40,814 nucleotides of DNA from Alphaproteobacteria bacterium. GTDB taxonomy: Bacteria; Pseudomonadota; Alphaproteobacteria; Rs-D84. This document shows positions 501 to 21,999 of the stretch, one piece after another; the stretch's first letter is position 1; the number at the start of each line of letters is the position of its first letter. The translations under genes were made by a program, and so were the position numbers. The notes under the pieces were generated by a model. It saw only the letters and a list, made by a program, of their open reading frames with translations. It searched no databases and had not been told where the DNA came from. The stretch lies in assembly GCA_017451625.1 (NCBI GenBank), contig JAFTNY010000014.1, positions 1 through 40,814 of the forward strand, read 5' to 3'.

Positions 501-529
501 TTGAAATTTTATTTATCGTGTCGTATAAT
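501..529 (+). promoter_or_regulatory. Sigma70-type promoter for leader 1 and Cys-rich gene A
   Basis: TTGAAA (501-506), 17 bp spacer, TATAAT (524-529). Confidence 0.8.
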
Positions 530-534
530 AACAG

Positions 535-781
535 CGAATCCAAAGGGATATTGGGTTCGGGACTTAGAAAATCCCATAACTATGCAGTGCGAAAATCGCA
601 TTGTTATCCGACAGAAACTTTGTCGGCGCATTTGCTGCGTCGTTTATTTTCTGTATCCCGACCATTTTCGGTCGGGAAGTCGTGGCCATATAACAGGGTT
701 CGCCCAAAATCCACGAGGTCATTCATAGTTATGATTTTTCTAACTTCCCGACCGTCATTTCCATGGCGGTTTTGTTTTTTC
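535..781 (+). ncRNA. Structured 5' leader with C4/CI-antisense-RNA-like architecture and terminal terminator (element 1)
   Basis: Hairpin 535-559. Target GGGA-CTTAGAAAA-TCCC plus CATAACTATG (559-584). Hairpin 624-642 followed by a T-rich tract. Switch hairpin TCCCGACC/GGTCGGGA (656-677). Perfect 12-bp stem CGGTCGGGAAGT/ACTTCCCGACCG (669-680/743-754) encloses CATAGTTATG and ATTTTTCTAA, which are complementary to the target. Terminator ACCGTCAT-TTCC-ATGGCGGT plus T-rich tract (751-780). Confidence 0.7.
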
Positions 782-804
782 AAAACACAAAGGGAGTATA
801 GAAA

Positions 805-1656
805 ATGAAAAAACTGATTAGAATATGCACAGGACTAACATTCTGTACCAACGCAAACGCCGGCACACTGGCCACCCAGTGCACATCACTGTTCCCAAAC
901 GCCCATTGCACAACATGGGACGAAAGCAACATCAACGTTTCAGGCAAACGATGCGTCTGCAAAACCTGCCCCAGCAGTTATCCAGACTCTTGGGTTCCAA
1001 ACACGACCAGTGGCGGATACACCTTGATTGCAGGTTGTCAATGCAGCAATTGTTCGTGCACGAACAACCCGGACACAACAAAAACCACCGGTACCTGCAC
1101 CTGTGGCAGCAGCGGTGCCGACTATTCCACATGCACCGCCGCATCAGCCAGCGCAGTGCGATGCAACGGCTCAACCGGCACCACCAACGGCGGATGCTAT
1201 TCATACAGTTATCTTTTAACTGTTGCCGGCCAATACTATTGCCGTCCATATTATGAACAATCATGCACCATCAGCAGTGCCGCCACCGCAAAAAAATACA
1301 GCAAATATTGTACCGCTGGATATGGCGATACATCGTACCTAGAATGCTTGGTAACCAGTTGCGGCACCGGCGCAACAATGAATGCAACCCGCACTGCATG
1401 TGTTTGCAAGGCCGGATACTATGGCTCTAATGGCAGCTGTAGAAAATGCAGCAAAGGTTATTACAAAGACAGCGTTGGCGACGCTGCAGATTGCACAAAA
1501 TGCCCAACAGCCAATGGCACAACCGGCACCACCGCCGGCGAAGGTTCAACATCCATTACCGATTGCTATATCCCCGCAACCCACGAATGGACCAATTCGG
1601 ATGAAAAAGGCGAATACACAGCACATTTTACCAATGACTGTTATTACAATGAATAA
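805..1656 (+). CDS. Exported Cys/Thr/Gly-rich protein A with C-terminal ephrin-receptor-like (GCC2/GCC3-type) Cys module
   Basis: GGGAG RBS; MKK signal peptide ending ANA; about 29 Cys in 283 aa; CKAGYYG, CTKCP, GSTSITDCYIP and CYY C-terminus shared with 20862-21491. Confidence 0.85.
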   Translation: MKKLIRICTGLTFCTNANAGTLATQCTSLFPNAHCTTWDESNINVSGKRCVCKTCPSSYPDSWVPNTTSGGYTLIAGCQCSNCSCTNNPDTTKTTGTCTCGSSGADYSTCTAASASAVRCNGSTGTTNGGCYSYSYLLTVAGQYYCRPYYEQSCTISSAATAKKYSKYCTAGYGDTSYLECLVTSCGTGATMNATRTACVCKAGYYGSNGSCRKCSKGYYKDSVGDAADCTKCPTANGTTGTTAGEGSTSITDCYIPATHEWTNSDEKGEYTAHFTNDCYYNE

Positions 1657-3616: not shown

Positions 3617-3702
3617 ATAATGGTGCAGATGCGGCATGGGGCCGGCAACGTAGTGTACAAACGCTACATGAGTTGCCGGCCCCGCCCACAGATACGCCAT
3701 TA
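3617..3702. repeat. Palindromic intergenic repeat, copy 1 (REP/RPE-like)
   Basis: 12-bp perfect stem GGGGCCGGCAAC/GTTGCCGGCCCC (3638-3683) around GTAGTGTACAAACGCTAC; 3617-3677 nearly identical to 21926-21986. Confidence 0.85.
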
Positions 3703-21491: not shown

Positions 21492-21523
21492 TTTCAATCT
21501 CCTGTTTTTTATTTTCATGAATG

Positions 21524-21740
21524 AAAAAACCACCCAGAAAATTTGAGTGGTCAGGAGGTTGATAGCAATCCGAAGAATTGTGTGCTTATTTATATATATC
21601 GCAACCCTCCTGACCCAATGGGTTCAGGAGTTTCTTTTTCGTCGTAATAATAAAAAAGACGCATCACGCGCGTCATTAAGTATGTATTCCGACGCTTCGG
21701 TACGGGCTATCACACCCCATCATAACAACACGTCATGACA
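21524..21740 (-). ncRNA. Structured 5' leader with C4/CI-antisense-RNA-like architecture and terminal terminator (element 2)
   Basis: Read on the minus strand: hairpin 21739-21719; target GGG-GTGTGATAG-CCC plus CCGAAG (21718-21695); hairpin GACGC..GCGTC plus T6 (21674-21652); switch hairpin CTCCTGAACCC/GGGTCAGGAG (21630-21607); stem GGTCAGGAGGGTTG/CAACCTCCTGACC (21615-21602/21561-21549) carrying CTTCGG and GCTATCA, complementary to the target; terminator ACCACTCA..TGGGTGGT plus T-run (21551-21524). Confidence 0.7.
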
Positions 21741-21745
21741 TTGAC

Positions 21746-21774
21746 ATTATACGAAAACAAAACGATAAAAGCAA
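21746..21774 (-). promoter_or_regulatory. Sigma70-type promoter for leader 2 and Cys-rich gene B
   Basis: Minus strand TTGCTT, 17 bp, TATAAT; same TCGTATAAT context as the promoter at 501-529. Confidence 0.78.
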
Positions 21775-21817
21775 ATGGTTAGATATAAAACATATACCTA
21801 AACAAACAATACACACC

Positions 21818-21999
21818 ACCCCTTGCTTGGCGTAAAATAAATTAGAATGATTTAGATAAAAGCAAATCGGGCAACGTAGTGTACAGACGCAAAAAAACAA
21901 CCCCTTGCATAGCGTAAAATAAAAGATAATGGCGCAGATGCAGGATGGGGCCGGCAACGTAGTGTACAGACGCTACATGAGTTGCCCGATTTGTTTTTA
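21818..21999. repeat. Palindromic repeat copy 2, within a tandem/inverted arrangement
   Basis: 21926-21986 matches 3617-3677; partial copy GGCAACGTAGTGTACAGACGC at 21870-21890; ACCCCTTGC..GCGTAAAATAAA at 21818 and 21900; inverted repeat AAAAGCAAATCGGGCAAC/GTTGCCCGATTTGTTTTT (21858-21875/21981-21998). Confidence 0.85.

Follow-up and report, generated by a model that had tools for sequence, protein, structure and literature searches.

What does a leader of about 270 nucleotides (nt) do in front of a gene for a cysteine-rich protein in a bacterium whose genome assembly comprises 892,698 bases (93.8% complete)? The question is raised by contig JAFTNY010000014.1 of Alphaproteobacteria bacterium (assembly GCA_017451625.1), of which we analysed a stretch of 40,814 nt (hereafter the window, to which all coordinates refer unless another sequence is named). 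The leader copy under study occupies about 536-804 on the + strand, between a promoter and the ATG at 805, with a transcription start inferred near 536. A first-pass annotation, made from the letters of the window, had read it as a single C4/CI-like antisense module, domesticated as an ON/OFF switch. Antisense RNAs embedded in leaders, as in the C4, CI and IsrK type, are known from phages and prophages, where they act as single immunity devices. We found instead that this leader has many paralogs, with which it forms a large family of leader RNAs that target themselves and fall into the C4/CI/IsrK/sRNA-Xcc1 class. The 0.89-Mb genome holds 27 related leaders, of which 12 have a long form (type A) and 15 a short one (type B), and in each of them two patches of an embedded small RNA, b′ in a hairpin loop and a′ in the adjoining single strand, match a private a1/b1 site upstream. 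The leader consists of the following parts:

501-529, + strand: sigma-70-type promoter, -35 TTGAAA at 501-506, 17-nt spacer, -10 TATAAT at 524-529; 11 of 12 consensus positions
536-558, + strand: P0, a 5′ hairpin GAATCCAA/TTGGGTTC with loop AGGGATA; sequence conserved among type A leaders
559-584, + strand: target module; hairpin GGGA/TCCC (559-562/572-575) with a1 (564-571) in its loop and b1 (575-584) directly 3′
585-626, + strand: variable hairpins H2 (585-603) and H3 (608-626), read from the sequence, which is not conserved among paralogs
624-652, + strand: T1, an internal terminator-like hairpin (624-642) plus T run TTTATTTTCT
656-663, + strand: anti-P1 TCCCGACC, a near-copy of the P1 3′ arm, which pairs with the 5′ arm of the closing stem over a 6-nt loop
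670-753, + strand: sRNA-Xcc1-like small-RNA unit, a three-way junction of 84 nt (86 nt if counted as 669-754)
670-679/744-753, + strand: P1, the closing stem; GGTCGGGAAG is the exact complement of CTTCCCGACC; starts with GGT
680-685/711-716, + strand: P2, TCGTGG/CCACGA, with the conserved internal loop ATATAACA
696-698/703-705, + strand: P2b, GGG-TTCG-CCC (696-705)
717-721/732-736, + strand: P3, the second hairpin of the unit
724-733, + strand: b′ patch, mostly in the P3 loop; perfect 10-bp complement of b1 (575-584)
736-743, + strand: a′ patch, single-stranded between P3 and P1; 8-bp complement of a1 (564-571)
751-780, + strand: T2, intrinsic terminator ACCGTCAT/ATGGCGGT (751-758/763-770) followed by TTTGTTTTTT; terminator-like hairpin 750-771 plus T run
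791-1656, + strand: ribosome-binding site (RBS) AGGGAG (791-796) and 283-amino-acid (aa) open reading frame (ORF) 805-1656, a candidate for a Cys-rich secreted protein

Several of these parts share bases. The first 8 nt of GGTCGGGAAG are also complementary to anti-P1, the first 3 nt of T2 (751-753) belong to the P1 3′ arm, and H3 and T1 have 624-626 in common. The leader as a whole folds with z = -5.9 against 200 shuffles, and the P2 and P2b stems appear in the minimum free energy fold of the unit. The first-pass annotation, from whose list T1 was absent, had described the near-consensus promoter with its long leader, the alternative pairing of 670-679 with 656-663 or 744-753, the terminator that overlaps the closing stem ahead of the RBS, the two inner stems of the unit and the display of one upstream segment in a hairpin loop, and all of these were recovered. 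It had also paired two patches in 724-743 with 564-584. Here, the 10-bp b and the 8-bp a helix stood, and the ninth a pair that it had claimed proved to be a T:T mismatch.

The relatives were collected by BLAST, a stem search and nhmmer profiles. In type A (n = 12) the unit measures about 82 nt and is closed by GGTCGGG/CCCGACC; in type B (n = 15) it measures about 65 nt, with GGTTGGAGG or GTCAGGAGG as the closing stem. R1, a covariance model built from the type A units, finds 24 of the 27 leaders again, and types A and B therefore constitute one family. The proposed single module thus gives way to a family that extends across the lineage, with genomes carrying at least 27 copies at the upper end, and one further copy lies within the window itself:

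~21519-21775, - strand: second family member, type B, with promoter (~21774-21746), target module, anti-P1, 65-nt unit (21550-21614) and terminator

The order of parts is common to all copies: promoter, 5′ hairpin, G-rich a1 hairpin with b1, variable hairpins, A-rich stretch with anti-P1, unit, T2, RBS and gene. Promoter-like hexamers stand at the equivalent place in the paralogs, and in most copies a promoter upstream and a gene start 30-60 nt past T2 were found consistently. Anti-P1 was detected by a simple search in 22 of the 27 leaders and by eye, with a bulge or mismatch, in the other five; it co-varies with the closing-stem arm across the subtypes (CCCGACC, CTCCAAC, CTCCTGAC). T1-like sites could be parsed in 10 leaders. 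T2 was parsed in 24, in all of which its 5′ arm overlaps the P1 3′ arm by at least 1 nt (by at least 2 nt in 21); the shared stretch ranges from 1 to 6 nt across leaders and measures 3 nt in the window leader.

Covariation among homologous leaders, on which the first-pass annotation had staked its proposal, is present both in the fold of the unit and in the pairing of the patches. RNAalifold applied to the 12 type A units yielded 30 pairs, 14 of them with compensatory change. When 46 units from this genome and its relatives were aligned to R1, 97.5% of the cells were paired and 28 of the 30 pairs had changed on both sides; an alignment fitted to R1 favours the structure, but the margin is large all the same, as 0 of 500 shuffles matched this result and slid controls reached at most 51% paired cells. 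For the 15 type B units together RNAalifold returned only three pairs, with a one-base register shift between the two subtypes, and for the eight units of the GGTTGGAGG type it returned 18.

Because a covariance model cannot align a pseudoknot, the helix between a1b1 and a′b′ was assessed by duplex energies and permutation in place of pair counting. The antisense segment was taken as the 28 nt before the P1 3′ arm, and the target module as 36 nt picked by alignment column, i.e., independently of complementarity. Across the 27 leaders the mean duplex energy was -18.6 kcal/mol for cognate vs -8.9 kcal/mol for the 702 non-cognate pairs; the cognate partner was the best in its row in 22 of 27 cases and the best in its column in 21, and none of 100,000 permutations reached the observed mean. 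The target site lies about 100-150 nt upstream of the patches in the same transcript. Using the whole 205-nt upstream region as target gave a noisier picture (-20.6 vs -15.4 kcal/mol, with many non-cognate winners), in which the antisense window held GC-rich stem parts and short leaders were clipped; it was superseded by the column-picked modules. In leaders from other genomes (n = 11; of 16 loci, four had the opposite orientation and one was unparsed, and some of the genomes lie outside the order) the same preference was found, with -18.8 vs -11.9 kcal/mol, the cognate partner best in row in 9 of 11, and 0 of 100,000 permutations reaching the observed mean.

The alignments illustrate how this specificity is written. 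MAFFT placed the b patches out of register in 6 of the 12 type A rows; the well-aligned rows retain a perfect 10-bp b helix in differing sequences, such as CATAACTATG, CATAATTTGG, CATAATAGAG, CATCAACAAG and CACCAAAAAG. Between the paralogs C1 and C5, whose leaders are 84% identical, b1 differs at three positions, and each difference is accompanied by a complementary change in b′. Sequences of the a patch, which also co-varies, group into a few shared classes. The C4/CI-class architecture of two patches against adjacent upstream sites, which the first-pass annotation had deduced from one leader, is thereby borne out by compensatory change in 27 paralogs and their relatives.

The mode of action of phage P1 C4 did not carry over. 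With the region from -25 to +12 around the start codon as target, the cognate mean in the 27 leaders was -7.3 kcal/mol vs -8.0 kcal/mol for non-cognate pairs, no cognate partner was best in its row (0/27), and 94,534 of 100,000 permutations were at least as good as the cognate arrangement. The RBS-masking mode of P1 C4 is therefore without a target in these leaders. Words resembling the a patch had been noticed by eye near the ATG of several copies (e.g., C1 TAGAAAATG, C10 TAAGAAAAATG) as candidates for a P1-type a2/b2, and this same test rejected them. A four-strand model, in which the module flank GGTTCGGGA pairs with anti-P1, fits C1 and C5 and neither C6 nor type B, and was dropped.

Which known RNA does the unit resemble most? 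Across the whole window, Rfam at its gathering thresholds lists two tRNAs only, without the sRNA-Xcc1 copy. A permissive scan of 400-900 matched 671-760 end to end with the family sRNA-Xcc1 (RF02221, model positions 1-87), at 34.1 bits against a gathering score of 53 (E = 3e-4 for the 501-nt search), and a search of the genome with RF02221 gave eight matches, of which only C6:2188-2279 exceeds the gathering score (56.4 vs 53 bits). The C4 family, to which the first-pass annotation had pointed together with c4-2 and c4-a1b1, fared differently: the C4 model RF01695 had no match at the leader, with 14.1 bits elsewhere as its best score in the genome (gathering 45, E = 3.4), c4-2 and c4-a1b1 were without a match in the Rfam scans, and isrK (RF01394) was without one in the 400-900 scan at E up to 10. 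Among curated families, sRNA-Xcc1 is thus the closest.

The first description of sRNA-Xcc1 reportedly came from Xanthomonas campestris, and the family is classed as a trans-acting small RNA with unknown targets. Our unit shares its consensus fold, with the closing stem, P2 with an AUACAA-type internal loop and a small GC hairpin, and a second hairpin, although the window copy and seven of the eight genome matches score below the gathering threshold. The settings are alike as well. In Xanthomonas integron cassettes a same-strand gene, symE, is reported downstream of sRNA-Xcc1 (10.1101/2025.06.18.660453), in APSE it is reported upstream of an ORF6N gene (10.1101/2020.03.17.996009), and in Xylella several copies per genome are mentioned (PMC12189769). 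The present family stands apart in its number, 27 copies within 0.89 Mb, and in the build of each leader, which runs from promoter to gene and contains a cognate a1b1, anti-P1 and a terminator. The portions of the sRNA-Xcc1 literature available to us describe none of these features. The host differs as well, being an Hfq-less, reduced-genome gut alphaproteobacterium with secreted or surface proteins encoded downstream of the leaders.

With P1/P7 C4 the leader has in common an embedded small RNA with two patches, a′ and b′, whose partners a1 and b1 lie upstream in the same transcript, and the way in which small changes in the patches confer specificity. The closing stem begins with GGW, where RNase P is reported to cut C4 (PMC5320573). 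In contrast to C4, the family is missed by the C4 covariance model, lacks an a2/b2 over the RBS and is not associated with icd or ant, and an intrinsic terminator follows the unit. CI of satellite P4 is likewise a leader-derived RNA that pairs with an upstream site in the same leader and controls premature termination (PMC4825925); a comparable control would operate in our leaders. A cognate seqC-like site in the initiation region, for which -25 to +12 was tested, was not found here, and the present family, unlike CI, is chromosomal and multi-copy. The Group 1 C4-like small RNAs of Acinetobacter baumannii are reported as a large chromosomal, phage-derived set with variable patches, cut from longer transcripts at GGW (PMC5320573). 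They differ from our family in that they match the Rfam C4 motif and belong to another host lineage with another density per genome, and the parts of that report accessible to us do not present them as leaders of protein genes with self-targets (PMC5320573).

These comparisons leave room for the view that the small RNAs act in trans on other genes, in the way assumed for sRNA-Xcc1, while a1b1 serves as a decoy or an aid to folding or processing and the downstream gene is merely co-located. Host targets have been proposed for the A. baumannii RNAs (PMC5320573), and a 5′ fragment terminated at T1 would hold the target module only and could act as a sponge. A crude short-word search of the genome (blastn-short, which is unable to bridge the gap between a and b) points, if anything, in the opposite direction: outside the leaders it found complements of 11-17 nt at best and no extended one. 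That search was confounded, in that the top "own" matches of minus-strand copies were the trivial complement of the small-RNA gene. We know of no established function for a1/b1 of P1 itself, which again would suit this view. Neither the regular promoter-to-gene spacing of most copies nor the conserved overlap of terminator and P1 is to be expected from it. We regard it as very improbable, and it is the least supported of the explanations considered.

The overlaps within the leader suggest a switch. When the P1 arm was made unavailable, the mean free energy of T2 fell in magnitude from -9.7 to -3.4 kcal/mol. Partition functions were computed for 22 leaders, leaving out the five with imperfect anti-P1. 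In the free leader the probability of anti-P1 was 0.97 and that of P1 0.01; with a1b1 masked, P1 rose to 0.63 for a transcript ending just past the P1 3′ arm, where termination would be decided, and to 0.29 with T2 complete.

IsrK of the Salmonella prophage Gifsy-1 offers a precedent for such a device. One promoter is reported to give rise to a short terminated RNA and a read-through mRNA, and the short form, acting in trans, switches its own long isoform from one alternative structure to another and thereby activates it (PMC4825925). Terminator T2 and alternative pairings are present in our leader too, where they are known from sequence. IsrK differs in activating translation and in being a single locus, whereas in the present leaders the switch elements surround the terminator.

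We therefore put forward, with a probability of roughly 0.4, that the leader is a copy-specific feedback attenuator which senses the small RNA of its own locus, in a self-activating version. By default, the nascent leader would form anti-P1, the a′b′ patches would be captured in cis by a1b1 and T2 would form; transcription would halt before the gene, and the terminated leader would be a self-masked pro-sRNA. A free mature small RNA of the same locus could occupy a1b1 on the nascent transcript, a site made well before the cis a′b′. The cis small-RNA domain would then fold with P1, T2 would be weakened and transcription would read through into the surface-protein gene. The P1 fold would also be a processable substrate, probably for RNase P at the GG(T) start of P1, and would release more free small RNA. 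The outcome would be a copy-specific, self-reinforcing ON/OFF switch, comparable to IsrK acting on its own read-through mRNA. An ON/OFF function, as in the first-pass annotation, is thus something we infer. The self-activating version would use every conserved part and agrees with the predicted shift in P1 probability and the calculated destabilization of T2. The direction of the feedback is its least certain step, at which we lean towards self-activation.

The genome encodes the RNA of RNase P, and the 3′ flank of P1 reads R-Y-C/Y, with a full RCCA in only about five to six of the 27 copies. Searches of this genome for Hfq and ProQ domains found neither, and Hfq was found in 0 of 41 genomes of the genus, which fits a loop-driven, chaperone-free pairing.

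Several points weigh against this self-activation. P1 and the a1b1:a′b′ helix cross as a pseudoknot that the nested-structure model cannot represent; the program must pick one of them, whereas both might coexist, and the shift in P1 probability on masking is therefore partly forced by the model. The RNAalifold consensus sets a 7-bp P1 beside T2, with no overlap, and since the two can coexist side by side, P1 need not abolish T2. In three of the 27 copies T2 was not parsed, and copy C61 has no gene close downstream but only a distant gene for histidyl-tRNA synthetase with a promoter-like region of its own. The free RNA of 80-90 nt and the read-through are predictions, the RNA libraries being available as contigs only. 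C4 and CI, the best-studied relatives, are repressors. Masking a1b1 had no consistent effect on T1 among the 10 leaders with a T1-like site. Covariation, finally, demonstrates pairing and does not tell cis from trans.

The repressor relatives and T1 lead to an immunity-like negative feedback of the P1 C4/P4 CI type. Here, the small RNA, cut or terminated from the leader, would pair in trans with a1b1 and cause termination at T1 and/or T2, or Rho-dependent termination, so that the gene is held down while the small RNA is still made. The architecture resembles that of P4, where CI is reported to pair with seqA upstream and seqC downstream, leading to premature termination (PMC4825925), and P1 C4 likewise stems from a leader carrying a1/b1 (PMC5320573; Weinberg 2010 table, PMC2864571). 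The terminators sit 3′ of the target, and in two leaders masking a1b1 did raise the probability of T1, from 0.49 to 0.80 in C1 and from 0.02 to 0.86 in C56. Rho, which was not detected in this assembly, occurs in 39 of 40 relatives within the genus; its absence is therefore an assembly gap and no evidence against Rho-dependent mechanisms, and the presence in relatives speaks for this explanation. The scarcity of T1 among the leaders and the uneven response to masking count against it, as does the lack of a cognate site at RBS or start codon, which leaves the translation-block and polarity route of C4 without a target. Moreover, anti-P1 would have no role, and masking shifts the thermodynamics towards P1 and weakens T2. 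We consider negative feedback a rather doubtful explanation.

Transcript data from four RNA libraries, which hold parts of the region as contigs, bear on T1. Depth is unusable in this form, and small-RNA ends and abundance are unreadable. Contigs of libraries X3 and X4, from two studies, end at 646, 3-4 bases past the T1 hairpin, and that of X3 runs on into sequencing-adapter letters; that of X4 starts at 461, upstream of the promoter. The common end is a weak hint that molecules end at T1, and favours termination of the negative-feedback kind to that degree. Gaps in the contigs (X3 647-710, X1 671-1608) carry no meaning.

That covariation is silent on cis and trans opens a further possibility, a cis-only structured leader in which a1b1:a′b′ is the long-range helix of one alternative fold and the trigger is something else, e.g., temperature, the speed of transcription or a protein bound at the P2 internal loop. 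If the helix formed only in cis, its covariation among paralogs would be indistinguishable from private specificity, and the free leader is predicted to be almost wholly cis-paired, as the high probability of anti-P1 indicates. Within the unit, sequence conservation peaks not in the patches but in the P2 internal loop and P2b hairpin, as would suit a protein or a tertiary contact. Against these points stands the homology of the unit to sRNA-Xcc1, called a discrete trans-acting small RNA in the title of Chen 2011 (as cited in PMC12189769 and 10.1101/2020.03.17.996009), transcripts of which are reported to be detected in Xylella (PMC12189769). The patch pairs set a loop against a single strand, a geometry typical of fast intermolecular antisense pairing, and a terminator directly after the unit suits the release of a short RNA. 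We judge a leader acting in cis alone to be decidedly unlikely.

The genes behind the leaders appear to be mostly secreted or surface-related, judging from their sequences. The 283-aa protein encoded at 805-1656 has a signal-peptide-like N terminus and 29 Cys, and the type B leader of the window precedes a 210-aa Cys-rich paralog (~21491-20865, - strand). Both belong to a Cys-rich family of seven members with 25-65% identity, all of them behind such leaders and with both leader types represented. The two window proteins are small and of secreted type, with 8-10% cysteine and recurring motifs such as C-x2-C...G-Y-Y. Searches of Pfam and PHROG assigned the 283-aa protein to no family; its best Protein Atlas score was 0.80, to eukaryote-type ephrin-receptor-like or TNFR-type Cys-rich repeats, which we take as a lead only. 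A crude rule assigned a signal-peptide-like start to 14 of the ORFs behind the 27 leaders, two of these with a lipobox; nine of the ORFs are small with 7-11% cysteine. Other products include a protein of >1,078 aa with Chlamydia PMP repeats, GT8 and GT2 glycosyltransferases, a superinfection-immunity protein and several without a family. The leaders at C37:8736-8915, C23:8957-9139 and C22:88103-88285 precede paralogous proteins of 60-61 aa that are 44-51% identical. The C37 member alone has weak, sub-threshold matches to helix-turn-helix domains (HTH_31, HTH_3), and these proteins may be small regulators linking the RNA switches to a protein circuit.

The surroundings of the window leader are plain. 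Upstream lies one divergent gene:

2-394, - strand: ppa, pyrophosphatase gene

Downstream lie an ORF of unknown kind and dnaN. Neither this ORF nor its neighbour matched a PHROG family, and no phage gene flanks the window copy, in line with the first-pass annotation. A contig of another RNA library, X1, joins 450 to 1670 with 21 other letters between them and has 26 differences in 360 bases of its ppa stretch. This contig skips 451-1669, and the related strain that it represents therefore lacks promoter, leader and Cys-rich gene as one complete cassette; leader and gene together behave as a unit that is gained and lost between strains.

Genes for secreted and surface proteins are a class in which ON/OFF heterogeneity is usual, a point in favour of the self-activating version, which could be taken one step further. 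About 27 genes per genome, many of them for the Cys-rich secreted family, lipoproteins, an adhesin-like repeat protein and glycosyltransferases, would each have a bistable, self-propagating RNA switch of their own with a private two-patch code. The terminated leader would be an inert pro-sRNA, and the mature small RNA would unmask and mature further copies and open the terminator. ON and OFF states would be inherited epigenetically and independently for each gene, amounting to phase or antigenic variation by RNA alone, with the DNA left unrearranged, in a symbiont of reduced genome that lacks Hfq. We hold this extended scenario to be unlikely as it stands.

How widely is the family distributed? 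R1 matched in 113 of 121 sampled genomes of the order and in 81 of 81 of the genus, with more than 1,300 matches in total and 1-27 copies per genome in the order sample; at most 27 candidates per genome were scored, and high copy counts are lower bounds. In a class-wide sample, 18 of 139 other genera had one to eight copies. For Enterousia, of the order Rs-D84, a gut habitat, genomes below 1 Mb and a presumably partner-dependent life are reported (PMC12306168). Public genomes were scanned with an 18-base pattern, for which we estimate a few hundred chance matches. When 80 of the 119 stretches were tested with R1, 65 proved to contain a genuine element (E <= 1e-6); in the remaining 15, mostly non-alphaproteobacterial, R1 found none. 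Strong matches came from records titled Candidatus Enterousia or from metagenome-assembled genomes of gut "Alphaproteobacteria bacterium", and weaker ones (40-51 bits) from marine Rhodobacterales and one viral contig, L171, the only one of five viral stretches in the scan to hold an element. At L171:4500-4702, on a high-GC viral or proviral contig, R1 scored 40.5 bits, and the same kind of upstream a1/b1 self-target could be made out by eye (CTCTGAC vs GTCAGAG). Three stretches with R1 scores of 98-113 bits (L088, L122 and L072) are filed under bins of Bacteroides fragilis, Muribaculaceae and Clostridia, and are probably mis-binned contigs of the alphaproteobacterial lineage.

As a side observation, the window holds an 83-nt perfect-looking hairpin element at 3618-3700 (+), with a free energy of -46.8 kcal/mol and z = -6.9, behind a promoter-like TATAAT. 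A 92%-identical repeat lies at 21915-21986 (+), with 21866-21890 as an additional stretch, and the genome has about 10-15 copies. The element has no Rfam match and is covered by RNA-library contigs; it could be another small-RNA family or one resembling miniature inverted-repeat transposable elements.

How much of this has been described before? Leader-embedded antisense RNAs, the sRNA-Xcc1 family and multi-copy chromosomal C4-like RNAs in Acinetobacter are already known, the last from the accessible parts of PMC5320573. Our literature searches found no description of the present leader family, with supplements such as Additional File 1 of Weinberg 2010 on c4-a1b1 lying outside them; a search combining "c4 antisense", Alphaproteobacteria and leader returned no paper, and the Enterousia literature, as far as titles, abstract openings and the available portion of PMC12306168 go, has no mention of small RNAs. 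Four features were not found described in these searches: the self-target design in Xcc1-class RNAs, the arrangement of anti-P1 and terminator, at least 27 private pairs in a genome of <1 Mb, and the link to surface and secreted genes across an order.

With these leaders, the sRNA-Xcc1-class RNAs gain a concrete and testable target, namely their own leader. The family suggests a route by which a bacterium with few regulators and without Hfq may control many surface genes individually. It also provides a natural set of orthogonal RNA switch pairs, the specificity code of which can be read from covariation, and if the feedback is positive, these switches would constitute a new route to phase variation.

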